Origin: Arcobacteraceae bacterium
Lineage (GTDB): Bacteria > Campylobacterota > Campylobacteria > Campylobacterales > Arcobacteraceae
DNA length: 64,000 nt
Assembly: GCA_041672955.1 (NCBI GenBank)
Contig: JBAYYP010000003.1
Location: forward strand, 13,899 to 77,898
Direction: 5' to 3'
A program made the translations under genes and the position numbers. The notes under the pieces are model-generated. The model was not told the origin of the DNA. It saw only the letters and a program-made list of their open reading frames with translations, and did not search any database. Within the stretch, counting starts at the first letter, position 1; the number at the start of each line of letters is the position of its first letter. Shown piece after piece: positions 46,130 through 64,000 of this stretch.

Positions 46130-46216
46130 GCGAGTGTGGCGGAACTGGTAGACGCGCGGGACTTAAAATCCCGTTCCCATTAGGGAGTGTGAGTTCGATT
46201 CTCACCATTCGCACCA
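46130..46216 (+). tRNA. tRNA-Leu (anticodon TAA)
   Basis: Cloverleaf with long variable arm, loop CTTAAAA, GTTCGA T-loop, encoded CCA. Confidence 0.95.
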
Positions 46217-46230
46217 CTAATTATTAATGT

Positions 46231-46319
46231 AGAGAGCTGCCAGAGTTGGTCGAATGGACCGGTTTTGAAAACCGGCGAGGTGAAAGCCTCCGGGGGTTCG
46301 AATCCCCCGCTCTCTGCCA
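46231..46319 (+). tRNA. tRNA-Ser (anticodon TGA)
   Basis: Acceptor stem AGAGAGC/GCTCTCT; CCGGT-TTTGAAA-ACCGG anticodon arm; long variable arm; GCCA end. Confidence 0.95.
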
Positions 46320-46376
46320 TTAATCAAAATAAATCATCTAACTTCTCAATTTAAATGATTTAGCCTATACTTTTTT

Positions 46377-46451
46377 GGAGCCATAGCAAAGTGGCTAATG
46401 CATTGGATTGCAAATCCTTGATCCTCGGTTCGACTCCGAGTGGCTCCTCCA
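46377..46451 (+). tRNA. tRNA-Cys (anticodon GCA)
   Basis: GGAGCCA/TGGCTCC acceptor stem; loop TTGCAAA; U73 discriminator then CCA. Confidence 0.95.
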
Positions 46452-47819: not shown

Positions 47820-48284
47820 CTATAATCCATTTTTCTTATTAATATATTGCATTCCACATGCTTCATCTTCTCGTGACCACACTTCTAAAGGCTTTTTTAA
47901 AATATCTACTTCATTGGAATCTAAAAGAGAGTTGTTTGCAATATATACATATGCTTTTTGAACAATATTATCTAGGGTTCTTACTTCAATTGTTTCTCTG
48001 TTATAAAAACCTGCACTAACTCCTTCTAAAATATCCAGTTCAGAAAGAAGCTCATTATTAATTTTATACAATTCACCTTTTACAGATATTGATTTTTTAA
48101 TATCTTCATGGGATATTGCTTTAAATAAAAATGGAAAAAAGTAATTAATGTTGGGGTACATTAAAAAGGTATCAAGAGTAGTTGCATTATCTATTTTTAA
48201 AGCATTTTCCAATAAAAAGTGATTATAAAATCCACTTTTTAAGCTTCCATATACAAAAACATTTATTGTTAAATCTTTATTCAT
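47820..48284 (-). CDS. Gamma-glutamylcyclotransferase (GGCT/AIG2-like), copy 1
   Basis: VFVYGSLK.G..NH; VKGELY; LDILEG; YNR. Confidence 0.88.
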   Translation of the reverse strand: MNKDLTINVFVYGSLKSGFYNHFLLENALKIDNATTLDTFLMYPNINYFFPFLFKAISHEDIKKSISVKGELYKINNELLSELDILEGVSAGFYNRETIEVRTLDNIVQKAYVYIANNSLLDSNEVDILKKPLEVWSREDEACGMQYINKKNGL

Positions 48285-48869: not shown

Positions 48870-49475
48870 CTACTTTTTTAGACAAAATAAACTACTTTCT
48901 AATTTTTTAATATAATCAGACAGTTTTTCATTTTTAATTACAAGTTGTTCTATCTCATCTCTTAAATAAGAGGTCTCTTTATGATTATATTGTTCTAGAA
49001 ATTTCTCAATATATGAGAAATTACTTATATCACTGTTATTATTATGTAAGAAATTCAATAATTGAGTATCTTCACTTTGGGCAATTACTTCATTTGATAA
49101 GCCACTAATAACGATAGATAACTTCAAGCTATTTTTTTCTATTAAGTCATTTGCTTTTGTTGCAAAATTTATCTCCGTATCTTTATTGACCAAACGATTA
49201 ATCGAACCCATTAAATCTTTAACAATAAAAAGACTTACATTTGTATGAATATCAAATATAACAAGAACGCCTTTTGCAAATTTTAGTTTATTTCTAAGTG
49301 GTATAAATATATTTCTTGAAATTTCATGAACTTTATATACCTTTGTAAATCCAGTAATATTTCCTTCCATTTCTAAAATCATTTTTGTATCGACAAAGTC
49401 CATTGCCAATTGCATCTCTTTTAAGATATCTGTTTCAATTTTGCTTCTATTACTCATTTTTAACTCTCTTAGCAT
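48870..49475 (-). CDS. Stand-alone FtsZ C-terminal-domain-like protein with coiled-coil tail
   Basis: MDFVDTKMIL..EG (cf. NLDFADVKTVM..G), AKGVLVIFDIH, EINFAT, LKLSIVISGL (cf. VxVTIIATG). Confidence 0.65.
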   Translation of the reverse strand: MLRELKMSNRSKIETDILKEMQLAMDFVDTKMILEMEGNITGFTKVYKVHEISRNIFIPLRNKLKFAKGVLVIFDIHTNVSLFIVKDLMGSINRLVNKDTEINFATKANDLIEKNSLKLSIVISGLSNEVIAQSEDTQLLNFLHNNNSDISNFSYIEKFLEQYNHKETSYLRDEIEQLVIKNEKLSDYIKKLESSLFCLKK

Positions 49476-50912
49476 TTAGCTAATGTTTCTAAAAACATTG
49501 TTATTTGGTCTTCTATTATGTATAAAAGATTTTCTTGTAGGTATTTCTTTAGGCATTGATAAATAATCAACTACAATTCTTTGTTCATCAATAGTTTCAA
49601 TAACTATTTTATACTCTTCGAGTAATTTATTATCGGTAACAAACATATACGCTTGAGGGCTTTCATAATCAGCAACACGCAATAGATTATTTATCTGTAA
49701 ATATTTATATTCAACTTTAATTAACTCTTTTTTATCAATAAATATAGGCTTTGCAAAATAACTTCTGTTATTTGCTAAATTAATATATTCAAACTCTTTT
49801 AGCTGCTCATTATCATTGGTATTAAAGCTATATCGTGAGATGATATTTGTGTATAACTCTTGATATTGATTTTCCCCTAATTTATTCTTTAAAAGTATCT
49901 CATCTTGTGTTGCAAACAGATATTCAAAATTACTCTCTCTACAAACATCAACTTGAGGTAAATACTCAGAGTTTAAGACTTTTTGGGCTTCATCAATTAC
50001 AATACAAACAGGTTTCATCTCAAAATAGCTGGCTTTTTGAAGTCTTGTATAAATAGCTGTATTAATGGCATTTAATACACTTTCACTTAAATTTGATACA
50101 TCAATGATGATAATTTTTCCTGCTCTTAACTCTTTAATAATATCTAAGTCACTCTCATTCAAATATGCTTTTGTAGCTATTTGATTTAAAATAGTACTTA
50201 AATGATTTACAATGCCATTTTTACCGAAATCATCCTCTATTTTTGTTTTTTCATAAAGTTTTAAAGTAGCCAATGTTTTTCCAATATTATTTAACAAATC
50301 ATTAAAAATATGTTCTCTTTTTCTAAAAAACTTATCTTTTGGTCTTGGCATTTTTTTAACATATTCTAAACTGCTTACCATATTTTCATAGAAAGATTTT
50401 ATAGCTTCAACATTTGCCACACAAGAGTATAAACTTGCATAGCTAATATTTTTATGTATAGATGGAATATTAAATCCAGAGTGATACTTATTTACTATTT
50501 CCTTTAAAAGATTGAAATTTTTATGAATAGTAAAAACATTTTCCATCAATGATTTAGCAGAATTTTCCCAGTAATCACCAACTCCTTTTGACTTAACAAC
50601 TAAGGGGATTTGACTTGAAGATAAGTAATCACATAGATTTATATTTTTACCCCATGGTTTACCTATTTCAATAACCTCATGCAATTTGTCATGTTTATTT
50701 GCAAGATATTTTGCTTGAAGGTGTAAGTTGCCTTTAAAATCATAGATTAAAACACCATAGTCTGATTTAATTCTCTCTTCTATATTTGGTAAAACAGAAC
50801 ATGAAGTTTTTCCGCTTCCTGTTCTTCCAAACACTATTCCACTGGTAAACTTTTTAGGTAAAACCATGCTTTGTATATTTCTTTCAGTTGTAGTATTAAA
50901 TCCCATTGCCAT
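49476..50912 (-). CDS. VirD4/TraD-like P-loop ATPase without an N-terminal TM anchor
   Basis: GRTGSGKT...PNI; VLIYDFKG; Walker B IVIDEAQ; FATQ. Confidence 0.7.
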   Translation of the reverse strand: MAMGFNTTTERNIQSMVLPKKFTSGIVFGRTGSGKTSCSVLPNIEERIKSDYGVLIYDFKGNLHLQAKYLANKHDKLHEVIEIGKPWGKNINLCDYLSSSQIPLVVKSKGVGDYWENSAKSLMENVFTIHKNFNLLKEIVNKYHSGFNIPSIHKNISYASLYSCVANVEAIKSFYENMVSSLEYVKKMPRPKDKFFRKREHIFNDLLNNIGKTLATLKLYEKTKIEDDFGKNGIVNHLSTILNQIATKAYLNESDLDIIKELRAGKIIIIDVSNLSESVLNAINTAIYTRLQKASYFEMKPVCIVIDEAQKVLNSEYLPQVDVCRESNFEYLFATQDEILLKNKLGENQYQELYTNIISRYSFNTNDNEQLKEFEYINLANNRSYFAKPIFIDKKELIKVEYKYLQINNLLRVADYESPQAYMFVTDNKLLEEYKIVIETIDEQRIVVDYLSMPKEIPTRKSFIHNRRPNNNVFRNIS

Positions 50913-50944
50913 TGCTTGCTCCTTGATGTTTTATTTAGTCTTAT

Positions 50945-52687
50945 TTATTCGTTTATTTGTACTTTAAAAAAAGTGTTATGAAGTACATCTATTTTTTTAT
51001 TAAGCTCTTTAATTTGGTTATCAAGCTCTTGCTCTTTATTGAAATTATCTATTAATTGCTTTTGTTGTGAATTTGTTAAAACAGGAATAGATAGCTGCTT
51101 AATATCAGAGGGTGAAATTTGTGGCATAGAAGCTCCACTTACAAGTGAAAACAGAATGTTTTGAGTGAGTTTTGATTTTAAAAACATATACAAAGCAATG
51201 GCATTATCTTTTTTATTCGAGCTTTTAATTCTAATAACTTGTATAGCTTGTGAAGCAACCATAACATGCGTAGTTTCACCTACAATAGCAACTTTACCAA
51301 TAACCCCTTTAGAACTCAATAACACATCAAAGGGTTCTAATTTGTAGGTTTGTAGTTTTTTATCTTGTGAGCCAATCTCTTTTATTTTTCCACAAGCATA
51401 GGTAAATCCAGCAGAAGAAAAATCATAAGGTGAAATCTCATAGATTTTAATTCCTGTTTGTTCATCTTTAAACAGTTGTGATCTTCTTGCATCTGCTATA
51501 TCTTCTAATGCTATTAACTTAAACTGTTTAAGATATTGTTGTCGTTGTTGTTGCTCTTTAGGATTAACATATCTGTCAATAGATAAAGAGTAATTATTTT
51601 TAATAATATCCTCTTTTTTTACAAGAGAAGAAATGCCATCTAGTTCTTTAGTGTTGATGTAAATATCTACTATTTCCTCAAGATTTTTAAGAACAAATTT
51701 TTTACCCTCTCTTGTTATAAATTGTTCATCTTTTAGATTTAAAAAATAGACTCTATCATCTGATTTTTCTTTATTTAATACAAACAGCGTAGTTTCAATT
51801 GAAGTTGCCATAAATAAATTAGGTGGAAGTTGAATAATAGCTTGTATATAGTTTTTTTCACACAAGTATTTTCTAAACTCCTCTTCAAAGTTTCCTCTGT
51901 ATGTAAAACCAACTGAAGTTAAAACAACAGCAGTAGATTTTGTTTGAGCTAAAATATGTTCAAAGTGAGCAATATCAAGCACTCTTCCTTTTTGATACTC
52001 AAATCTATTATATATATCTTTAGAAGCATCTATATTCCCTAATACTCTTAAAGGAGGTGCGGAGAATACTTGTGTAAACTGCTTTAAAATATGAGGAGCA
52101 TCTTCTTTTAGAAAGGTTGGCTTCTCAAGGGCGTTTGTCATAGAAAACTCTATATTAGCATTTTCAATAATATTTAATAAGTGGGAAACTAAAGAGGATT
52201 TATACAAAGGAAAGTCTGCGTATATCTTTTTACTAGTAAATTCGCAATAAGCAAACCCATTTGTAAAAGGGATATAAATCTCATTACACTCAGGTGCATT
52301 ACTATTTAAAATTTCTAATCCTAGTTTTGCTATTTGGGGAGATACACAAAAGTCATGATTTCTTTGATTATAAAAGACTTCATTGATTTTAGGCAAACTA
52401 TTATTCACAACTATTGTAAACAAAGCAATAAGTTCTTTATTACTAAACATTTTAGCATCAAGAGAAAAAGTACTAAATAGTTTTATCTTTTTAGATAAGG
52501 AATCAAAAGTTTTTACCAACTTAACTGCTTCTATTTTATTATTGTAAAAAGTTGTAAAAGACAATTCCCGTTCAATCTCTTTTCTTGAAAGTATCTGCCA
52601 TGCTTTTAATACATATAATAACTCCAAGGCTTCTTGTTTAAAATTAAAATCTTTAAGTTGATTTTCGAGTTGATTTATACTTAACAC
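50945..52687 (-). CDS. N6-adenine methylase-like domain fused to a TRD (HsdM-HsdS-like) with degenerate catalytic motifs
   Basis: IQAIIQLPPNLFMATSIET; NNYSLSIDRY; TRD motifs DVLLSSKGVIGKVA and GASMPQIS; SAPPL in place of NPPF; GTG start after AGGAG. Confidence 0.75.
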   Translation of the reverse strand: MLSINQLENQLKDFNFKQEALELLYVLKAWQILSRKEIERELSFTTFYNNKIEAVKLVKTFDSLSKKIKLFSTFSLDAKMFSNKELIALFTIVVNNSLPKINEVFYNQRNHDFCVSPQIAKLGLEILNSNAPECNEIYIPFTNGFAYCEFTSKKIYADFPLYKSSLVSHLLNIIENANIEFSMTNALEKPTFLKEDAPHILKQFTQVFSAPPLRVLGNIDASKDIYNRFEYQKGRVLDIAHFEHILAQTKSTAVVLTSVGFTYRGNFEEEFRKYLCEKNYIQAIIQLPPNLFMATSIETTLFVLNKEKSDDRVYFLNLKDEQFITREGKKFVLKNLEEIVDIYINTKELDGISSLVKKEDIIKNNYSLSIDRYVNPKEQQQRQQYLKQFKLIALEDIADARRSQLFKDEQTGIKIYEISPYDFSSAGFTYACGKIKEIGSQDKKLQTYKLEPFDVLLSSKGVIGKVAIVGETTHVMVASQAIQVIRIKSSNKKDNAIALYMFLKSKLTQNILFSLVSGASMPQISPSDIKQLSIPVLTNSQQKQLIDNFNKEQELDNQIKELNKKIDVLHNTFFKVQINE

Positions 52688-53021
52688 AGTAACTCCTATT
52701 TTTTTATATGTTGAAATTATAACTAGTAATTTAATACAAGTCAATAGTTTGAAAGAAACTAAACTTGAATGCCTTACAAAGTTAATCGATTACAAATAGT
52801 AAAACCCCTATTTTAAGGAGTTTTATTAAGTTTTAAAATATTTGAATTTTTTATGAAGTTTATTATTTCTTAGGTTTTATATTTTGGTTTTGGGTGATAT
52901 TATTAATAAAAGTAGTCAAATACTTTCAAGTTCTTGCTCAAATTTACGACTATGTATGAAATTTAAATATTGTAAATCTATCTTATTTCATATATAATCA
53001 GAGTAACAAAAAGGACTTTAT

Positions 53022-53927
53022 ATGAATTCATCATTGCGTATATTAAGTATTTATTTAATGTTTCAAAAAGGATTGAATCTATCTACAAAGGAGTTGGCGG
53101 ATAAATATAGTACTACAACAAGAACTATATTAAGAGATATAAAAACAATCAACTCTTTACAAGAAACAAAAGTAATTTATAACCGTATTACAAATTTATG
53201 GGTTTTAGAAGATTATATTAAATTAGATTATCTAAGTGATGAAGAGATATCATTAATTGAGGCTTTATCTTCAAAGTCAACTGAAATGGGTGAAGACTTT
53301 CATAACCAAACTTCTAAATTATTTAAAAAATTTAAAAGAAATCTTCATAATTGTATTTATGAGAACATTGATACTGAAGATATAACAAATATTAAAAGAG
53401 ATTTAGTGGTTGTTGAATATTGTGTTTATAATAAAACAAAAATAGAATTAATCTATCAAAATAAACAAAGAGTTGTAGAGCCTCTAAAGTTAGCCAATTA
53501 TGATGGCTATTGGTATTTATTAGTGAATGATTTAACTAATAATAGAGTAAAAACATTTTATTTTAAAGATATAAAAGAGCTAAAACCTCTAAAAGACTTT
53601 TTTACCATTAAAATCGAAAATATAGAAGATAGGATGAAAAATGCAATTAATGCTTATTTTACTCTCGATGTTAAACCTTATGAAGTAAAACTTTTCATAA
53701 CAAGCCAAAAGGCTAATATTTTTAAAAGGAAACCTATATCCCCATCTCAACTTATATTAAAGGAGTATTCTGATGGCTCTTTTGACTTTAGTATTTGGAT
53801 AACACATGATATGGAGATAATTCCAACTATTCAAAAGTTTTTACCATATTTAAAAATACTAAGTGATGACATACATGGCAAACGCATATATAATCAAATT
53901 ATTGAAAATATAAATAAATTCAAATAA
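53022..53927 (+). CDS. WYL-domain transcriptional regulator (wHTH-WYL-WCX)
   Basis: LSTKELADKYSTTTRTILRDI HTH; RVVEPLKL...GYWYLL; KTFYFKDI. Confidence 0.92.
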   Translation: MNSSLRILSIYLMFQKGLNLSTKELADKYSTTTRTILRDIKTINSLQETKVIYNRITNLWVLEDYIKLDYLSDEEISLIEALSSKSTEMGEDFHNQTSKLFKKFKRNLHNCIYENIDTEDITNIKRDLVVVEYCVYNKTKIELIYQNKQRVVEPLKLANYDGYWYLLVNDLTNNRVKTFYFKDIKELKPLKDFFTIKIENIEDRMKNAINAYFTLDVKPYEVKLFITSQKANIFKRKPISPSQLILKEYSDGSFDFSIWITHDMEIIPTIQKFLPYLKILSDDIHGKRIYNQIIENINKFK

Positions 53928-53937
53928 GCCATCAAAC

Positions 53938-53968
53938 GACACATTATGTCTTTTGATTAATATATAAT
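53938..53968 (+). promoter_or_regulatory. Promoter of the RNase H-ddmDE operon with palindrome GACA-N5-TGTC at the -35 position
   Basis: GACACATTATGTC at 53938-53950; TATAAT at 53963-53968; RBS GAGGAG. Confidence 0.55.
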
Positions 53969-53988
53969 ATTTGGCATGAGGAGTTTTC

Positions 53989-54387
53989 ATGTCAAAAATT
54001 AAAAGAAGAATGCTGTATGTTGATGCAACAGGATATAAAGACAATACTGAATTTAAAATATCTCTTTATGATCCAGAAATTAATCTTACTAATATATTAG
54101 CACTAAAAGATATCTCAACATCAAATGAAGCAGAAAAATATGCAATTCTTTATGGAATTCTTTACAGTGTAAAAAGTAACTTAAAAAGTGTACACATCTT
54201 ATGTGATAATCAAAATGCTACTGAATCAAAAGAACTACGAGAATTAGCTGCTTATGCATCAATTAGAATTTTGTGGATACCAAGAGAGCTAAATACAATT
54301 GCCGATAAAATTGCAAAATTAGAGCCAACTGTTAAAGAAAAAGAGTGGTATTTGTTACATTTTATATATAAAAACTTAAGGGTATAA
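53989..54387 (+). CDS. Small RNase HI-like protein
   Basis: Four acidic catalytic positions: YVDA, NEAEKYA, LCDNQ and WIPRELNTIADK. Confidence 0.8.
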   Translation: MSKIKRRMLYVDATGYKDNTEFKISLYDPEINLTNILALKDISTSNEAEKYAILYGILYSVKSNLKSVHILCDNQNATESKELRELAAYASIRILWIPRELNTIADKIAKLEPTVKEKEWYLLHFIYKNLRV

Positions 54388-57300
54388 ATGGAAAATAAAT
54401 ATCCTACAACTGAGTATATAAAAGAATTATATAAAAAATACTTGCCGATATATGATGGAGAAAGAAAGAGCGGATTATTTTTATTGCCAGCTCAAACAGG
54501 AAGTGGAAAGACTCATGCAACAGCTTTTGTAATTGCAGATGTTCTAAGAAACTATAAAGATAAAAATATTATTTATCTTATTAATACCAAAAGTAATAGA
54601 AGTAACATTAAAGAAGATATTTTAAAACTATCAATTGATGAATTAGAAAAAGAAGCATTTAATAACGATATCCTAGAACTCAAATCTAATGAAGATAATT
54701 TATTTGATTTTTTTACGAATGAAGCTTTTAAAGAGTTAAGACATCTGAATGAAATAGATGAATATATAGCTTTAAAAAAAAAGATAACTTCCTTACAAGA
54801 AATAAAAAAAACTAATGTTGAAATATATGAGATTTACAAAAAAGAAGATACTGATCTAAAAAATAAGATATCACAACTTTATAAAGATGATGAAATTTCG
54901 ATTGAATTGCTGGAAGAAATTAAAAAGATATATCCAACTGTCGGTTTGAATAATAGAGTTATAATCACTACTTCGCATAAGTTTGTTGAACAGACTTTTA
55001 CCCTACCTACAAGAAAATATCTTTTTGAAATGTATGACACAAAAAATACTCTAATTTTTATTGATGAGTTTGATACACAAAAAGGCGTAATACTTGATAG
55101 TTTTATCAAAAAATCTGTTGAAAAATCTCTTGATAACTTTGAACTTTTAAAAATTATTCATGAAAGACTACATGAACATCTAATAAGAGATTATAGTAAA
55201 TATGAAGAGTTATTGGCGTTAAAAAATGAGATTAAATTTTTTTATGAAGAGAATAATTTTGCCAATAGATTTAAGTATGACAGTGATGAAAAACAATACT
55301 TTTTAAGAGATACGGCATCTATAACAATAAATACATCTGCAAAAAAGCACATTATAAAAAAAGGGAACAATTTAGCTACTAACTTTATAATACAAAGTGA
55401 TGAAGTAGATTATAAGGGCAGTTTTGAAGAACTGTTTGATAAATCTGATAAATTGGTTAATAGATTTTTAGGACTTATAAAACAATCTGCTTATGAGATT
55501 GCTGCTACAAAAGGTGAAGATATATCGGACATTATTTATACTTTCTTATCTGAATTTATTGCTTCAAAGGATACGCAAGATATTACAATAGTTAACAGAA
55601 TTTTAAGGGAACAAAATAAAAAAATAGATAAAAAATATTTTCAAAGTGATATTAGTAAGGCATATACGGGATTATACTCTTTGCTTACGATTATAAATGA
55701 CTCTAAACACAAGACTACAAGTAGATTTGGAAACTACACATTAGAAAACACCCCAGAAGCTTTTTTAAATTTTTTAACAGATAAATTTTTTGTAATAGGT
55801 ATCTCTGCAACAGCTACTATTAAAACAAAAATAGACAACTTTGATTTGGAGCATTTAGAAGATAAAATTATCTATTTAACTAAAAAAGAGATTGAAAAAC
55901 TCAATCAACTGTTTTTAGAATATAAAGTAAAAAATAGAAAATCTGTTATAAAGTTTATGGATAACTCAATTCATAAAAGAAAAATTGATATAAAACATTA
56001 CATTGATTCATTGGATTTGTTTCCCAAAGACGATAATATATTTGACTATTTTTGGAATAAATTAAATTTTGAAGACAATAATAAAGCTTATAACTTATCA
56101 AAATATATTGATCTACTTTTAGTGTATAAAGAGTTTATAATCTCAGAAACTATTCATAAGCTTTTATACTTAAATACATTTAGTTTTGAAAAAAAATATA
56201 ATCTTGAATTACTATATAAGATGATAGCACTTATGATAAGGCACAACTATTCAAACCTCTCTTCTTGCATGCAAAAGAGATTTAAAGGTGTATGTGATTG
56301 GGATTTAAACGATATAAATTTATTAATGGTTAAAAGCTCCATTTTTATGATTCATTTTACAAACGCTAATGATGATAAGAAAAAATGGAAAGAGTCTCTG
56401 TATTATGATAGTAAAGTTTTCTTAGTATCAAACTTTGCTTACATGTCTAAAGGGCAAAATATACAATATGATTATAATGATGGGAAAATTGGTTCAATTA
56501 CTAAAGAAAAAGATTTTGATGCCATATATATAGGCGAAATAACCAACAGACTCCCATCAAAATTAGACAATGAGAAAAAAGAACACCAACTGCTTAGATT
56601 GCTCTATAGCTTAACTGTTTTAAAAAATAATGGTGATATATCTAAAAAAGAAAAATATGTTTTTTTAAAAGCTGTTTTATCAGGAAGTAAATACGCAGAA
56701 AACCCATATAAGGAAACTGAAGATTATATTAATAGTTGTATGATACTTATAATACAAAGCATAGGAAGACTACATAGGACAGATTTTCCAAGTGATATTT
56801 ATATTCTCTTTCATGACACTAATAAAAAAATACTTCAAAGATTTAACCCTGAAAATCAATCGTTACTTCCTTCTGTAATTGAGAGTATGCTCATAGCAAA
56901 AGAAGAAATATCTGAAGAAAATGCGTCAAAAAATCATATAACTAATGAAACGAAAAACAAAAATATCAAGGATAATTTATCTTATATTTTAGAAATATTT
57001 AACAATAAGAATTCTTCTAAATCGAAATATAACGAAGCTATTGAGGATTGGGAAAAGGAGAGGGTGTTGTTACTTACAAATCCTTCAAAAGAAAAACTTT
57101 ATTCAAAAGACCATAAATATATGACTATGCCTTTAAAGCAATATTGGTATAAGCAAAAGAATGATTATGAAACCATTGAGATAAGCCATGAATATAAGAA
57201 AGGATATACAGAAGTATCTTATGAAGCAACAAGACTCGACAAGCTATATAAAATAAAAGAGCTACAAGAGTGCTTTTCAAAATACAACATAGCAAAATCA

Positions 57301-57786
57301 TTTGAATATGAGAATATTTTAATTCCCATAGTATTTAACAATTTTTACAAAGGTGCAATTGGTGAAATATTTGGTAAATATATATTAGAAAAATATGCAA
57401 ATATTAAACTTTTTGAACTTTGTTATGAATCGCAAGCTCAATATGAAACCTTTGATTTTACAAATGAAGACGAGAGTGTATATTTTGATTTTAAATATTT
57501 TAGCACCTATACGGCTTCATCTATTATATTGCCTGTTGAACTAGCCGATGTTATTAAAGCAAAATTAAGTGGGGAAAATCTTCATAATAAAAAGGTATTC
57601 ATCATTAATCTTTTTGATGATGACACAGAGCAAAGCCACTTAACAAGGTCAAGTAAGATTGAAATTATTGATAATATTTATTTTATTCCTTGGCTTATTA
57701 ATTTAGATAAGGAATTAAACCCGCAAATTGATACAAAAATGATTGTAAAAATAGGAGAGATTTATGCTAAATGTGCAAACAAATAA
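54388..57786 (+). CDS. ddmD: SF2 helicase with C-terminal PD-(D/E)XK nuclease, DdmD-like
   Basis: AQTGSGKT, FIDEFD, GISATA, QSIGRLHR; C-terminal YKGAIGE...FDF...YFDFK nuclease; 1132 aa. Confidence 0.7.
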   Translation: MENKYPTTEYIKELYKKYLPIYDGERKSGLFLLPAQTGSGKTHATAFVIADVLRNYKDKNIIYLINTKSNRSNIKEDILKLSIDELEKEAFNNDILELKSNEDNLFDFFTNEAFKELRHLNEIDEYIALKKKITSLQEIKKTNVEIYEIYKKEDTDLKNKISQLYKDDEISIELLEEIKKIYPTVGLNNRVIITTSHKFVEQTFTLPTRKYLFEMYDTKNTLIFIDEFDTQKGVILDSFIKKSVEKSLDNFELLKIIHERLHEHLIRDYSKYEELLALKNEIKFFYEENNFANRFKYDSDEKQYFLRDTASITINTSAKKHIIKKGNNLATNFIIQSDEVDYKGSFEELFDKSDKLVNRFLGLIKQSAYEIAATKGEDISDIIYTFLSEFIASKDTQDITIVNRILREQNKKIDKKYFQSDISKAYTGLYSLLTIINDSKHKTTSRFGNYTLENTPEAFLNFLTDKFFVIGISATATIKTKIDNFDLEHLEDKIIYLTKKEIEKLNQLFLEYKVKNRKSVIKFMDNSIHKRKIDIKHYIDSLDLFPKDDNIFDYFWNKLNFEDNNKAYNLSKYIDLLLVYKEFIISETIHKLLYLNTFSFEKKYNLELLYKMIALMIRHNYSNLSSCMQKRFKGVCDWDLNDINLLMVKSSIFMIHFTNANDDKKKWKESLYYDSKVFLVSNFAYMSKGQNIQYDYNDGKIGSITKEKDFDAIYIGEITNRLPSKLDNEKKEHQLLRLLYSLTVLKNNGDISKKEKYVFLKAVLSGSKYAENPYKETEDYINSCMILIIQSIGRLHRTDFPSDIYILFHDTNKKILQRFNPENQSLLPSVIESMLIAKEEISEENASKNHITNETKNKNIKDNLSYILEIFNNKNSSKSKYNEAIEDWEKERVLLLTNPSKEKLYSKDHKYMTMPLKQYWYKQKNDYETIEISHEYKKGYTEVSYEATRLDKLYKIKELQECFSKYNIAKSFEYENILIPIVFNNFYKGAIGEIFGKYILEKYANIKLFELCYESQAQYETFDFTNEDESVYFDFKYFSTYTASSIILPVELADVIKAKLSGENLHNKKVFIINLFDDDTEQSHLTRSSKIEIIDNIYFIPWLINLDKELNPQIDTKMIVKIGEIYAKCANK

Positions 57787-59524
57787 AGTTGATATTAAAA
57801 TAAAATATCAAAATTTACATGAAGATTTTAAAATATTATCAAAATCTATTCAATACAAAAGCTTCAAAGAAAGAGGAAAATTGATAAATGACTTTAAAAA
57901 AGATATTAATCCTCTTGCTTTTACTATTACAAAAGATGAAATCATTTATATAGTGAATAAAAATGATTTGATAAAAGATGATATGAGTAAAAAAGTTCCT
58001 ATGTTTAAAATAGAATCATTTCCAAAAGATTTTATAGCAAATCTTTTATTCCAATTTTTAAGAGAAAAACTCAATTTTTTCTCAATAATAGAAGAGCCTT
58101 ACAAGTTGTTTTACTTAGTGAAGAATGGTAAAAAGATTCTGGAGACTCTTTGTTTTGAGATAGATAAAAATAGTCTATTTCAAGCAAATGCTGTTGCATT
58201 TAAAAAGTTTGAAGGAGATGCAAAAGAGTCAAAAAACATACTATACACAACAAATGGAAAAGCATTAACAATTTACAAAGAAGACCAAAAAAGCAAAGAT
58301 TTATTTTCAAAAGGCAATTTTAGAAATAAGAAGATTACTATAGAATTTTTTTCAAGGAGCATTAATCAATATCCTAATTCTAAAGCATATTTTATTGCTA
58401 TGTTCTTAATAGATATAAAAAAACATTTAAGCCATTACATAGATATAAGCTTTACAAGAGAACTTATGACAAGCTATAAAAGCTATACAAATAGTTATAA
58501 AGAAAAGAAAGCAAATATAACACTTAAAAATATCCAAAGTTCAATAGCTGAATTAAATATACTAAATTGTACAAAATATTCAACTGATACGCTAATGACT
58601 TCTATAAAAAAAGTTTTTGATGACAAAATAGAAATATCACTAGATAAGCCTATTGAGAAAAATGAGTTTAATTTAGTTTTATTGTATAGCAAAGAGTATT
58701 ATACAAAAAACAATATTGAAGATCCATACAAGAATCTAAAAAAACTAAACCCCTATACTCAGGTCTTGATTTTAGATAATAAAAAAATAAACAATTATTC
58801 TTTAGAGGTATGCTTAAAAGAGTTGTTGATAAAAAACGACATTAATAACAAAAAAATTACACTAAGTACCTATGAGAGTAACCAAATTCATAAAATTTAC
58901 TCCATAGAAGCCATCAAAAACAAAGATACCATATATAAAGTCCATGAATTAAGTATAGAAAAACATCAAGCAATCTCATATAAAATATTAGAACAAGAAG
59001 AAGCAGAAGAGTTTATTCAATATTTTTTGAATACCAATAATTCAGATCATGCTCTTGAGGTGCTAGTAGAAGATTTTGAAGGAAATATCAATGCAATTTA
59101 TAAAACTAAACAATATCCAATAGTAGATTTTGAAGGAATATATGATTATTACAATACTGTAGATGTAGAAATTGAGAAATTTAATCCAGCTAGAAAAGGC
59201 AAAGAAGATTCAAAAGAACATTCGAAGAGATATCATCTTACACAGGGATTTCATAATTTAAAATACTACTTGTCTGAAAGTAAAGCATATTATACAGTTG
59301 GTGTGAATGTAGGAACCAATAATTTTTCAAAAACTGCTCCTATACGAAAAGTTTGTGCCTATAAAGGAGACCTGATTTTAGATAAAATTTTGCCAACTCT
59401 TGATGAGTTTTTTGTTAAAAACAAAGAATTTACGGTGTTGCCTTTTGGGTTAAAATATTTAAGAGAGTTTAGGCAAATAATAAAGGGAGGGTCGTGTTTT
59501 GTACCTTTGAGCAGAAATACCTAA
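57764..59524 (+). CDS. ddmE: Divergent prokaryotic Argonaute-like protein, DdmE-like
   Basis: Overlaps the helicase-nuclease gene; MID-like EYY...DPY...Q and LKELLIK; C-terminal FVKNKEFTVLPFGLKYLREF, recalled from DdmE-type proteins. Confidence 0.6.
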   Translation: MLNVQTNKVDIKIKYQNLHEDFKILSKSIQYKSFKERGKLINDFKKDINPLAFTITKDEIIYIVNKNDLIKDDMSKKVPMFKIESFPKDFIANLLFQFLREKLNFFSIIEEPYKLFYLVKNGKKILETLCFEIDKNSLFQANAVAFKKFEGDAKESKNILYTTNGKALTIYKEDQKSKDLFSKGNFRNKKITIEFFSRSINQYPNSKAYFIAMFLIDIKKHLSHYIDISFTRELMTSYKSYTNSYKEKKANITLKNIQSSIAELNILNCTKYSTDTLMTSIKKVFDDKIEISLDKPIEKNEFNLVLLYSKEYYTKNNIEDPYKNLKKLNPYTQVLILDNKKINNYSLEVCLKELLIKNDINNKKITLSTYESNQIHKIYSIEAIKNKDTIYKVHELSIEKHQAISYKILEQEEAEEFIQYFLNTNNSDHALEVLVEDFEGNINAIYKTKQYPIVDFEGIYDYYNTVDVEIEKFNPARKGKEDSKEHSKRYHLTQGFHNLKYYLSESKAYYTVGVNVGTNNFSKTAPIRKVCAYKGDLILDKILPTLDEFFVKNKEFTVLPFGLKYLREFRQIIKGGSCFVPLSRNT

Positions 59525-59726
59525 AAAGTTAAAAATACGAAAACCAGCTGTGAGTTTTAAATCAGCAGTTGAAAACTTACGATTTCTAACCCCTGGGGAT
59601 TTTGCAGCGGTGGTAAGACAAAATAGATTTCGACCTATTAAAAATGTGAAAGATTTAATATCAAGGATTGAAGATGAAATAACTGTGAAGAGTGCAAATA
59701 ATAATAAAAAGATGGGGTTTATATAA
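59523..59726 (+). pseudogene. C-terminal remnant of an AAA+ ATPase
   Basis: Start-less frame: ...VENLRFLTPGDFAAVVRQNRFRPIKNVKDLISRIEDEITVK...KMGFI*; its stop abuts the next ATG. Confidence 0.7.
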
Positions 59727-60383
59727 ATGAAAAAACTTACGAAACTTATTAATAAACTTATTAAAAGAGTTGATTTTTTAAGTAATAAAATAGACAAAAT
59801 CTACGAAGATAAAGCAATATGTATCATCGGAGTTGGAGGTGGCGGCTGTAATATAGTTGATGATATAGCTAAACTAGATAATAGTTTTAATATCATTCAC
59901 ATAAACAGTGATATAAATGCTTTAAATACAAAATATTCAGGAAATAAAATAGTTTTAGGTCGTGATATTAAAAGAGGATTTGGTTGTGGTGGTCAAGTAT
60001 CTTGTGGAAGAAAACTTTTTGATGAAAAGATAAAAAAAGAGTTATTAAATTTAATTAAGAACAATGAAAAGATATATCTTGTCTCAACTTTAGGTGGCGG
60101 TGTAGGAAGTGGCGTTATTCCAGAGATTTTAAAGTACCTTCAGTACATTGGAAAAGATGTTAAAGTGATTGTAACTATTCCTTTTAGTTTTGAGGGAAAG
60201 AAAAGAAAAACCAACGCTTATAATTCAATACAAGATATAGAAAAAATTAGCCATGAAAAAACAAATATTAGGGTACTTAAAAACGATGATTTAATCAAGA
60301 AAGCTATCGATGAAGAGCTTAGTGTTAAAGAGACTTTTTTATTAACTTCAAGTATTATTTTTAAGATGATAGAAAAAATCTAA
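59727..60383 (+). CDS. Stand-alone FtsZ/tubulin GTPase (N-terminal) domain protein
   Basis: GVGGGGCN, INSD, GFGCGG, TLGGGVGSG, TIPFSFEGKKR, KNDDL; ends after helix H7, with no T7 loop or C-domain. Confidence 0.85.
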   Translation: MKKLTKLINKLIKRVDFLSNKIDKIYEDKAICIIGVGGGGCNIVDDIAKLDNSFNIIHINSDINALNTKYSGNKIVLGRDIKRGFGCGGQVSCGRKLFDEKIKKELLNLIKNNEKIYLVSTLGGGVGSGVIPEILKYLQYIGKDVKVIVTIPFSFEGKKRKTNAYNSIQDIEKISHEKTNIRVLKNDDLIKKAIDEELSVKETFLLTSSIIFKMIEKI

Positions 60384-60592
60384 TAAAAGTAACATATAAA
60401 TATAAAATAAAACTATATAAAAATGCACTTGATGAAACAGTTGATGGTATGGTAAAATCTTAAAATATAATACCCCAGAGAAAACAAACAATTTTTTGTA
60501 AAGTTTAATTCTTTTATGAGTAAATTTAAACAATAAAAATAGAGGGTAAAGGTATGAGTAGAAAAATGAAACAATATAGCACAGAGTTTTAA

Positions 60593-61291
60593 ATGAAAAA
60601 TATATATATTATAAGTGATGTTCACGGGTGTTATAAAACTCTTTTGGCTTTAATTGAACAATTTCCATATAAACAAAACTCTAAAATTGTTTTTGTTGGT
60701 GATTTAGTTGATAGAGGAGAAAATTCATATAATGTTGTTCAATTTGTTATGGAAAATAATTATGATTGTGTAAAAGGAAATCATGAAGATATGCTTTTAG
60801 AATATGGATCAATAACAAAAGATGAAACTTTAGCAAAGATAGCAAAACATTGGTTAAATAGTTGTGGTGGAAATGAGACAATAAAATCTTATAAAAATAA
60901 TGAGGATTATATTAAACATTATGATTATTTAGACTCTCTACCCATATATATTGAATATAAAGATTACAAAACAGAAAATAGTAGGTATTTAGTTGTAAGC
61001 CACTCGGCTATTGGAACTGTTTGGGAATGTAAAGATAGTCAATATGAAATTGATAAAGATATTTTTGAATCTCATATTTTATGGAGTAGAGAACCCAGTA
61101 TAGATATAAAAGAGATTTTTAATGTTTATGGGCATACCATGTTTGAAGAACCAAAAATGAATGAATTTAGTTGTGGAATAGATTTAGGTTGTTGCTATAA
61201 AGAAAATCCAAAAAAAATTCCAAATCCAAGACTTTGTGCGTTGGAGTTTCCGAGTATGAAACTATTTACTCAAGAGAATTTAGAAGATTAA
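60593..61291 (+). CDS. PPP-family metallophosphoesterase (PrpA/ApaH-like)
   Basis: SDVHG, GDLVDRG, KGNHE, YGHT, IDLG. Confidence 0.9.
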   Translation: MKNIYIISDVHGCYKTLLALIEQFPYKQNSKIVFVGDLVDRGENSYNVVQFVMENNYDCVKGNHEDMLLEYGSITKDETLAKIAKHWLNSCGGNETIKSYKNNEDYIKHYDYLDSLPIYIEYKDYKTENSRYLVVSHSAIGTVWECKDSQYEIDKDIFESHILWSREPSIDIKEIFNVYGHTMFEEPKMNEFSCGIDLGCCYKENPKKIPNPRLCALEFPSMKLFTQENLED

Positions 61292-61304: not shown

Positions 61305-61685
61305 GTGAAAGAAATTTATATATTTACCTATGGAACATTAAAAGCAGGTTATCCAAATCATGAGCTTTTAGCAGATGCAGAATTTGTATCAGATGCGATT
61401 ACTTGTGAAAAATATCAAATGTATCCAAGTATAAATCATCAGTTTCCTTTTTTAATAAAAAGTGAAAAATCTCAACAGATAAAAGGGGAAGTTTTTAAAA
61501 CAACTTCTAAAGAGTTATTAGAAAAATTAGACTATCTTGAGGGTTATCCCGATTTATATTTAAAAGAATTTATAAAACTTTTTCTTGAAGATGAAACTAT
61601 TGTAGATGCACTTGTATATTTTAAAAATGAAAAGAATAATTTAAATGCTGCTGATTATTCAAATCCTATTAATGAGTGGATTTAA
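61305..61685 (+). CDS. Gamma-glutamylcyclotransferase, copy 2
   Basis: IFTYGTLKAG..NH; MYPSINHQFPFL; IKGEVF; LDYLEGYP. Confidence 0.88.
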   Translation: MKEIYIFTYGTLKAGYPNHELLADAEFVSDAITCEKYQMYPSINHQFPFLIKSEKSQQIKGEVFKTTSKELLEKLDYLEGYPDLYLKEFIKLFLEDETIVDALVYFKNEKNNLNAADYSNPINEWI

Positions 61686-62559: not shown

Positions 62560-63383
62560 ATCACTTTTTTATCTACTTTTGTAAAATCATAAATACCATA
62601 AAACTGTTAATTCTTAAAGTTCTTAATTCTTGGTGCAAATGAAAAGCCTAGTAAATGTGTTATTCCAAATATTACTTCACTAAAACCATGGGTATCGGTT
62701 GAATGAATATCACTTTTAACAACATCATTGTGCATCAACCCATCAATTACATAGCCTGATTCCCTTTCATTGACATTTATAACTGTAGAATAAAAAAGTT
62801 TATGAGACTCATCAATAAAAGTGTAAACACTAACACCTTTTGCTGTTCCAAAATATTTAAATGAATATCCAGCATTAGTTGAATTGATGGAAGATTTAAT
62901 ATTAAATTTTTGACCATCACTTGAAGTGTGATTAATTTTTTTATTATTTCTTAGTATCTTTGAAATCTCTAAACTATCTGTAAATTCTAATATTTTATCA
63001 TTTGCTTCAGTTGTATTATCTTCACTAAAATACCAAGTGGTAGCTGTGTCAAGTTCATTTTCACTGATTCCTTTGGATATTTTAGACATTTTTGATAAAG
63101 AAATATTACAACCATAACCTACTATAGAAGCATATAAAAGATTTTCGTTAGGTTTTTTTATTCTTGTATTTTGTAATGAATAGTGTTTGAAGCAATCTAA
63201 AAAATCAGTTTGCTGCTGTACAGAGTGAAGCAAATCAATTATTGATATAAACTCTGCTTGTGGGAAATATTTTGCAATGGTATTTTCTAACTGCTCGTCA
63301 CTTTTTTCTACTTTTGGAGTTGTGAGCATAAATGAATCAGTAGTAAACTTAAAATAAAAGTTCAGCTCATTTCTTATATTCAA
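62560..63383 (-). pseudogene. Tn3-family transposase fragment (5' truncated, internally deleted)
   Basis: TSSDGQKF, RESGYVIDGL, HSTDTHG, FAPRIKN; after the stop the frame reads QFYGIYDF, like the TnpA C-terminal NxxGxYxF motif. Confidence 0.85.
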
Positions 63384-63408
63384 AGTTATTTAATCACTAG
63401 TTATAGTA

Positions 63409-64000
63409 TCAAGTTTTATGATTTATCGTATATTTAGTACCTTTTCCTGTTGTACCTTCAACTTTTTTGATGCAAGCTTTTTCAAGTAAGTCTGCTAAGT
63501 CTCTTGATGCATTGGTTTCTGCGGTATTAGCAATTTTTACATATTTTTTCTTTGTTAAATCACCTTTAAAATTTTCACTACCTATATCTAGAAACTTATT
63601 TAATACTTTAATTTGTCTTGCATTTAATTCATCACCTCTATGAGCATCCCAGAATTTTGTTTTATCAACAATGTATGATAATTGTTTTTGTGCATCTAAT
63701 AAAGAGTGATGTAGAGTTTTAAAAAACCATTCCATCCAATATGTAATATCTAAAGGTTCGTCTTTTTGAAATCTACCTGTTGTTTCGTCTAGAGCATTAT
63801 AGTATCCAATTCTGTCTTCATAGATACTCTTTGACATAGTATAAATTTTTGAAAAAGAAGACTTTTCTAGTTTGGATAAAACTCTATCTGTTAAAGCCCT
63901 AGTTATACGACCATTCCCATCATCAAAAGGGTGAATAATTACAAACCAAAGATGTGTAATTGCTGCTTTTTCTAAAGAACTAGGTGCTTCATTAAACCAT
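63409..64000 (-). CDS. Fic-family protein with C-terminal wHTH; 5' end outside the window
   Basis: Frame open to the window end: HLWFVIIHPFDDGNGRITRA Fic motif; TASRDL-like NASRDLADL HTH. Confidence 0.9.
   Translation of the reverse strand, partial: WFNEAPSSLEKAAITHLWFVIIHPFDDGNGRITRALTDRVLSKLEKSSFSKIYTMSKSIYEDRIGYYNALDETTGRFQKDEPLDITYWMEWFFKTLHHSLLDAQKQLSYIVDKTKFWDAHRGDELNARQIKVLNKFLDIGSENFKGDLTKKKYVKIANTAETNASRDLADLLEKACIKKVEGTTGKGTKYTINHKT

Follow-up and report, generated by a model that had tools for sequence, protein, structure and literature searches.

In a 64,000-nucleotide stretch of the genome of an Arcobacteraceae bacterium (assembly GCA_041672955.1, contig JBAYYP010000003.1, positions 13,899 to 77,898; hereafter the window), we found two intact genes that are homologous to complementary parts of FtsZ. 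An N-only gene (59727-60383, + strand, 218 aa) encodes a leader and the GTP-binding domain through helix H7, and a C-only gene (48870-49475, - strand, 201 aa) encodes a partial T7 loop (DxxD), the H8-S10 domain and a long C-terminal helix. The original prediction for this DNA was that one ftsZ had been split into two partner genes. Both open reading frames (ORFs) were indeed present and intact, but each half belongs to a family of its own, the two families mostly occur separately, and dN/dS values of close pairs indicate purifying selection in both. The window pair is best interpreted as two cassettes that came together in a single island. As to function, we tentatively propose from the sequences that each half binds host FtsZ as a one-faced, non-polymerising subunit and thereby modulates or stalls division upon induction of the island, a reading that we consider plausible but somewhat short of probable.

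The identity of the N-only protein is clear at the domain level. It matched PF00091 (E 3.5e-22; 80 bits versus a cut-off of 33) and spanned positions 16-202 of the TIGR00065 profile, with 109 bits versus a cut-off of 295. As predicted, it contains loops T1-T6 and stops after H7, and it lacks the T7 loop, the C-domain and the C-terminal peptide. Its signature, GGGVGSG, differs from the GGGTGTG of host FtsZ in both threonines, which are changed to valine and serine, and overall the protein is ∼28% identical to host FtsZ. The Atlas model reached a TM of 0.86 to an FtsZ cluster. The predicted extra N-terminal helix was also found, as a basic leader that is predicted to be amphipathic and that has the highest hydrophobic moment (0.84) of the basic or amphipathic leaders in the family. 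A PADLOC 2.0 scan of this protein gave no match, and PHROGs returned weak tubulin matches only. Membership of FtsZl/Tubulin_2 was considered and rejected, as PF13809 scored 27 bits over 97 residues versus 80 bits for PF00091.

For the C-only protein, the likelier start is at position 49457, giving 195 aa, because the database protein P0001 matches this start and a purine-rich stretch lies upstream of it. The protein matched TIGR00065 positions 202-337 (E 1.4e-4; 21 bits versus a cut-off of 295), such that the two half-proteins meet at profile position 202, the predicted H7/T7 boundary. PF12327, proposed as a check of the FtsZ_C domain, stayed below its cut-off (E 0.087), but the fold itself was recovered. 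The AlphaFold model (pLDDT 82) had FtsZ throughout its top Foldseek matches among those listed, and the best VIA match, out of 48,161 chains, was to FtsZ residues 200-312 (Z 10.1, rmsd 2.9, 104 aligned). Compared to the C-half of host FtsZ the identity was 28% (tblastn E 1e-11). Modelled in full length, the protein also shows a short N-terminal helix and the anticipated C-terminal helix, which is 48 residues long (H147-194); this helical tail is common to five relatives and is predicted to form a coiled coil. The T7-like motif MDFVD is only partial, since both aspartates are kept but the asparagine is replaced by alanine, and the glycine of GxxNxD is absent. PADLOC 2.0 gave one weak match for this protein (E 0.0095) with no passing stretch. 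Neither window gene has the C-terminal anchoring peptide or an ftsA neighbour.

Beyond the stretch on which the prediction was based, the same genome carries a normal ftsA-ftsZ pair on contig C47, with the C-terminal anchoring peptide in ftsZ, and the half-genes of the window are therefore extras. A frameshifted or misassembled ftsZ was rejected on account of this intact host gene, of the 10.3 kb between the two half-genes and of their opposite strands, and a recent duplication of host ftsZ was rejected on account of the low identity of each half (28%). A second C-only gene, of 111 aa, was found on contig C32 (G000:C32; L004:1366-1701) directly after mfd. By eye, it is followed by a GIY-YIG-like ORF.

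To place the N-only gene, loci were collected from genomes and metagenomes. The search scores of 23 relatives (181-260 aa) clearly exceeded those of all full-length FtsZ proteins, and in quick trees, as are all trees cited here, 35 distinct N-only genes formed one clade with a support of 100, also when 27 outgroup FtsZ sequences were included. The clade was found in Sulfurimonas/Arcobacter-type islands, with named relatives in Arcobacteraceae, Sulfurimonas and Sulfurovum. The end point is shared: 28 of 31 complete members stop at host-FtsZ positions 217-227, which is past H7 and before T7 (233-238), while the other three reach the edge of the reference without a C-domain match. Residues G43-G46, N48, P158, F159, E162 and N189 are invariant in all 31 members. 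Equally consistent are the changes, as the first signature threonine is V, I, C, F or L in 31 of 31, the guanine-binding aspartate of H7 is serine in 28 of 31, and cysteines are fixed beside T1 and in T3. According to simple scale calculations made without a control set, the leaders in 36 rows comprise 17 transmembrane-like, 8 twin-arginine-like (L020, L028, L066, L070, L072, L073, L079 and L148) and 6 basic or amphipathic ones, with 2 rows having none and 3 being cut or atypical. An FtsZ GTP-binding domain that is exported would, if true, be very odd.

Unsaturated N-only pairs gave dN/dS values of 0.14-0.16 (five pairs, dS 0.06-0.27) and 0.08-0.09. The window gene and its nearest locus-borne relative, at locus L018, gave 0.34, a value possibly near saturation; the values for distant pairs, near 1, were saturated and were not used. 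N-only genes are rare, occurring in 4 of 251 genomes of family f7, in 2 of 120 in the host's own family (f1) and, in a class-wide search at E<=1e-40, in 2 of 400 other genomes. No relatives were found in the viral contigs and plasmids searched. A double-AAA ATPase gene lies directly upstream in 13 of the 29 N-only loci for which upstream sequence was available, and its stop usually abuts the start of the N-only gene. The window has a remnant of such a gene, overlooked in the original prediction: 67 codons plus stop (59523-59726, + strand) that are 79% identical to the end of the ATPase upstream of the L018 gene, with the stop abutting the ATG of the N-only gene. Excluded from all counts were contig-edge pieces of normal ftsZ (L160, L179, L191), the ambiguous 5'-open ORF L164, internally deleted paralogs of 250-330 aa, duplicate genomes, and a 171-aa N piece that groups with normal FtsZ and follows a 459-aa ftsZ paralog in L165. 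Two N-only genes were seen in one locus (L080) and in another case as L021 plus L027.

C-only genes proved commoner and more diverse. A full HMMER search with the window protein yielded 43 relatives at E<=0.001, mostly of 104-133 aa; given these, the fact that a word-indexed search matched only the query itself reflects the sensitivity limit of the latter. A profile search revealed a second group near 174 aa (long-C), which also carries part of H7. The window gene joined the short-C clade with a support of 96-98, together with the C32 gene, whereas the C genes beside N genes belong to long-C; grouping the window gene with the latter was not rejected by an AU test (p 0.095). Residue D212 of E. 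coli FtsZ has a catalytic role. Its equivalent is kept in 9 of 10 members of the short clade, in 23 of 29 representatives and in 58 of 58 long-type proteins, a set not screened individually for fragments of normal FtsZ. The T7 glycine is present in 54 of these 58, the asparagine in 47 and the last aspartate in all. Among polar columns the D212-equivalent is one of the two most conserved (0.89 of 37 rows), and this aspartate may serve a structural role at the start of H8. The GxxNxD motif as such is named as important for hydrolysis in a review (PMC8456036).

Among C-only genes, the short-C pair L006/L155 had a dN/dS of 0.28, and long-C pairs fell within 0.26-0.33. The relaxed selection typical of pseudogenes, which had been put forward as evidence that would speak against functional halves, was thus not seen in either family. 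The window C-only gene itself sits on a long branch with no close relative and no unsaturated dN/dS partner; its frame is intact. C-only genes occur in 23 of 251 f7 and 7 of 120 f1 genomes, diverge fast (24-38% identity) and usually neighbour WYL, nuclease-like and ATPase genes. No short-C relatives were found in the phages searched. A long-C query on plasmids returned 85 records, and the annotated ones among the 20 matches listed are ftsZ genes. In islands of 8 of 251 f7 genomes, plus G503, there are 250-315 aa ftsZ paralogs with a largely deleted N-subdomain and an intact T7/C-domain (L154, L163, L166, L167, L169-L172 and L193), which look like intermediates towards C-only genes. We also observed a 250-aa protein with apparently two tandem FtsZ C-domains (P0231) and, on one metagenome contig, four tandem tubulin/FtsZ-family genes of 321-335 aa (L116).

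True N-C split pairs do exist in other loci, as a C-only gene lies within 1.5 kb downstream on the same strand in 4 of the 26 N-only loci with at least 600 nt of downstream sequence (L065, L144/G129, L076 and L146/G251, representing three N sub-lineages). At the genome level, a C-only gene is present in 7 of 17 other N-only genomes (intact in 5, broken in 2) compared to 28 of 365 genomes without N, giving a Fisher p of 3e-4 that is overstated by kinship and island load; within evenly drawn samples the figure was 2 of 6 (p 0.08). These data would suit a true partnership of the window halves in a two-gene system of a GTPase and its GTPase-activating protein (GAP), most simply a toxin-antidote pair. 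Here host FtsZ would be blocked at its growing end by a membrane-tethered N half until the C half covers the GTP face of N, fires its GTP and releases it, with orphan C genes as spare antidotes. The several-fold higher frequency of C-only genes would fit this, as would the position of both window genes at the ends of runs that diverge from one WYL regulator. Moreover, both halves in adjacent pairs carry part of H7, which would disfavour the simple re-assembly of one monomer. However, an obligate pair requires consistent genetic linkage, and this was not found: 10 of the 17 other N-only genomes are without any C-only gene, two of them being 98-99% complete (G615, G673), and G129 combines an intact N gene with an adjacent C gene that carries a frameshift. 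The majority of C-only genes occur without N. In the short-C clade, in which the window gene falls rather than with the N-adjacent long-C genes, an N gene was adjacent in none of the 10 loci. Since C without N can also follow the AAA ATPase gene (L162, L194), the adjacency may stem from a shuffling of cassettes downstream of that gene. The expected co-occurrence thus holds for a minority of loci, most genomes with one half lacking the other, and the split of one ftsZ into the two window genes was not upheld. We consider it unlikely that the window halves are true partners, and equally unlikely that fission of FtsZ in Campylobacterota islands produced a two-part conflict module in which membrane-tethered N caps the growing ends of the Z-ring and thereby arrests division, the T7 half is a dedicated GAP or antidote, and the WYL protein senses invasion. 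If true, such a module would be a toxin-antidote switch made from both halves of the protein it controls.

The remaining alternatives each account for part of the data. The C half could be a decoy or sensor bait that shows the T7/H10 face to phage and host inhibitors, either soaking these up to keep division going or presenting them to a defence effector. The phage T7 protein Gp0.4 (modelled there), SulA and MciZ all target the synergy-loop face, and the complex of Gp0.4 with FtsZ is sensed by a defence protein (PMC13423816); the fast divergence of C-only genes and their setting among WYL, methyltransferase and nuclease-like genes are in line with such a role. Catalytic aspartates would be dispensable for a decoy but rank here among the best-conserved polar residues, and a decoy should mimic host FtsZ closely, while the window protein is only 28% identical to it. 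Moreover, a decoy would leave the N half unexplained, and we regard this role as quite improbable. We give slightly less credence still to a role of the N half outside division, in which it would be anchored in the membrane, bind nucleotide and act together with the double-AAA ATPase as an adaptor or sensor, the C half being unrelated cargo. The frequent abutting ATPase gene, the export-like leaders of some members and the fixed changes of this family (signature threonine to V or I, H7 aspartate to serine, the cysteines) speak for it. On the other hand, 16 of 29 loci have no upstream ATPase, the same ATPase precedes many other genes, and in the window the ATPase is destroyed with N intact. Lastly, both halves might be functionless debris of extra ftsZ copies that decay in a hypervariable island. 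The ftsZ paralogs in such islands do range from full-length copies to internally deleted, frameshifted and fragmentary ones (L013, L014, L016, L144, L154, L163-L172), the window C-only gene has no close relative, and distant pairs approach a (saturated) dN/dS of 1. Debris would, however, hardly show intact frames at 25-65% identity, a common stop point after H7, invariant pocket residues and a dN/dS of 0.08-0.34 in unsaturated pairs, and this is the explanation to which we attach the least weight.

Our preferred reading, in which each half acts separately on host FtsZ as a dominant-negative modulator, builds on the polarity of the FtsZ filament. In the head-to-tail FtsZ polymer, each subunit inserts its T7 loop into the GTP pocket of its neighbour (PMC8456036). 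The C-terminal face of FtsZ is the plus end and a common target of MinC, SulA and MciZ (10.1101/2024.03.31.587266), and FtsZ interface fragments inhibit growth in E. coli as well as polymerisation (PMC9245647). The N half offers only the GTP face and would therefore dock on the T7-exposing, growing filament end, blocking it as MciZ does. It would be kept at the membrane, the site of Z-ring formation, by its basic leader, whose counterpart in many relatives is a transmembrane helix. With only its T7 face on offer, the C half would bind the GTP face, either on FtsZ monomers or at the opposite end of the filament, and there its aspartates could trigger GTP hydrolysis without extension of the polymer, draining the assembly-ready FtsZ; its helical tail likely dimerises the protein. 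The two cassettes probably arrived separately, N behind the AAA ATPase gene and C behind a HerA-like gene. Both now end divergent runs around one WYL regulator, which could couple the halves and might induce them jointly upon invasion. The original prediction had offered either a GTPase-GAP switch or filament capping. Of these, capping fits better than an obligate switch.

A predicted complex of the C half, host FtsZ and GTP lent weak support, scoring 0.49 compared to 0.00 for the best control, with runs agreeing in at least 85% of contacts and a partner pLDDT of at least 72 although no interface was given. Of 157 solved pairs 116 reached the mark used for complexes, as did 2 of 215 mismatched ones, but those that reached it with a score of 0.60 or less were only 18 of the 157 solved pairs and both mismatches; the score may reflect the likeness to solved FtsZ filaments. 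Several points weigh against the proposed action on host FtsZ. The N half is without both signature threonines and the H7 aspartate, and its nucleotide binding may be weak or altered. If the 8 of 36 N-only proteins with twin-arginine-like leaders are exported, they could not reach FtsZ. Binding to the N-terminal face would nucleate or stabilise filaments unless it is sequestering (10.1101/2024.03.31.587266), so that the C half would not be a simple capper. The window C half lacks the T7 asparagine and glycine and is isolated on its long branch, and broken copies and internally deleted ftsZ paralogs reside in the same islands. Finally, the adjacent N-C pairs and the enrichment of C-only genes in N-only genomes point to some partnership.

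Both half-ftsZ genes reside in a low-GC island whose left border is a cluster of tRNA-Leu, -Ser and -Cys genes (46130-46451, + strand; ARAGORN). The GC content is 26.7% to the right of the tRNAs versus 32.4% to the left, and 5 of 5 same-genus genomes align up to ∼46,500, at the tRNAs, with none aligning over the cargo beyond. Two runs of genes diverge from the gap at 52744-53022. The rightward, operon-like run starts with an HTH-WYL-WCX regulator (53022-53927, + strand; PF08279 and PF13280 over cut-off; PADLOC WYL E 8.5e-18), followed by an RNase-H-like ORF, a helicase-like gene and a PIWI-like gene, and ends near the N-only gene. By way of analogy, the Caulobacter WYL protein DriD induces a division inhibitor. 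The leftward run starts with a fusion of an N6-adenine methyltransferase and a type I specificity-like domain (50945-52744, - strand; PF02384, TIGR00497, PADLOC MTase_I and Specificity_I), followed by a HerA/VirD4-like ATPase gene (49476-50912, - strand; PF12696 E 3.6e-6; PADLOC mad8 E 5.4e-10) directly upstream of the C-only gene. Promoter-like sites were no commoner than chance (104 versus 100), although two of the best-scoring ones face outward from the WYL intergenic region. A search for an operator palindrome or att repeat gave none that was convincing.

The helicase-like protein (54388-57786, + strand, 1132 aa) matched PF04851 ResIII (E 2.3e-5) and, by eye only, has a nuclease-like tail. 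Its gene overlaps that of a 586-aa PIWI/Argonaute-like protein of an unnamed family (57764-59524, + strand), the end of which abuts the AAA remnant; this pair (54388-59524) replaced most of the AAA ATPase gene. Scans of the PIWI-like protein against Pfam, NCBIfam, PADLOC and PHROG gave no match, and it is recognised by an Atlas feature score of 0.96 with a cluster named Piwi domain-containing and by a TM of 0.57 to an Atlas cluster that is 45% PF02171; its other Atlas neighbours include clusters without a name. The two genes are a candidate for a divergent Argonaute-type defence system. Just after the N-only gene lies a short repeated piece (60463-60589, + strand) that matches the termini of three further contigs of this genome at 81-82%; by eye, it is likely the end of an insertion sequence. 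The methyltransferase-specificity fusion and mad8-like ATPase (49476-52744), together with a calcineurin-like phosphoesterase (60593-61291), recall parts of MADS, the full set of which was not seen in the family scans of the window. Two gamma-glutamylcyclotransferase genes (47820-48284 and 61305-61685) flank the island cargo, and such a gene is also present near the AAA-N-C run of G129 (L150). A Tn3 transposase fragment and a Fic gene lie near the right end of the window (62607-63999); the contig ends 1.7 kb past the window, placing the right border of the island outside the available sequence.

At the domain level both halves belong to the Tubulin/FtsZ superfamily, N via PF00091 and C via its FtsZ C-domain fold, and the GTP-pocket residues kept in N and the T7 aspartates kept in C tie them to canonical FtsZ. 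Unlike canonical FtsZ, neither ORF unites the N-subdomain and the T7/C-subdomain in one chain (16-202; 202-337), neither has more than one of the two polymerisation faces, and the canonical signature GGGTG(T/S)G and the complete T7 motif GxxNxD..D are absent. The closest described case is that of FtsZ1 and FtsZ3 of Hyphomicrobiales, which are likewise extra ftsZ copies; they lie outside the dcw cluster and are kept by selection, and the truncated paralog FtsZ1 blocks division when overexpressed (10.1101/2025.09.29.679267). That set required coverage of the full 315-residue core, including both subdomains, with only linker and tail being lost, whereas the window ORFs are cut at H7/T7 into one subdomain each, are island-borne and are patchily distributed. 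The main text of that paper does not mention Campylobacterota, and its supplement covers Alphaproteobacteria according to its methods. The N half is predicted to occlude the same T7/C-terminal face at the growing end as MciZ, SulA, MinC and Gp0.4. None of these is an FtsZ homolog, while the window halves are themselves parts of FtsZ, and for the C half the expected binding site is the opposite face.

FtsZ half-domains reportedly fold alone, in work ascribed to Oliva 2004 and Osawa & Erickson 2005. Engineered half-domains and fragments (including those of PMC9245647) share with the window halves the split point and the expected solo folding and dominant-negative action, but they are laboratory constructs, while the window halves are natural genes with membrane leaders or helical tails. 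Tubulin/FtsZ domains are known from conflict loci, in GAP1-N2 and MoxR-vWA systems (PMC7159879) and as FtsZl/Tubulin_2 (PF13809). The partners of the former as described there (paired TRAFAC GTPases, HSP70, vWA) were not seen in the family scans of the window. Natural N-only or C-only FtsZ genes were not found in the literature searched, which left subscription papers and bioRxiv supplements outside its coverage. The Atlas contains further clusters near 200 aa that consist of the GTPase domain alone, and FtsZ fission thus seems to be a recurrent event. What is new is the presence of both halves in one island, the two defined and selected families, the membrane leaders of N and the real adjacent N-C pairs.

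GTP hydrolysis by FtsZ requires that the pocket of one subunit receives the T7 loop of its neighbour, and single-faced halves are therefore natural end-specific probes. If our proposal is true, they would be evolved reagents to test the effect of capping each end of the filament, and with the C half there would be a natural activator of the FtsZ GTPase that stands alone, the first to be described as far as the literature searched shows. If the halves act on host FtsZ, they would represent a new source of division modulators made from FtsZ itself. Their setting among WYL, methyltransferase and PIWI-like genes would then link division control to defence, in which FtsZ takes part through phage sensing (PMC13423816).

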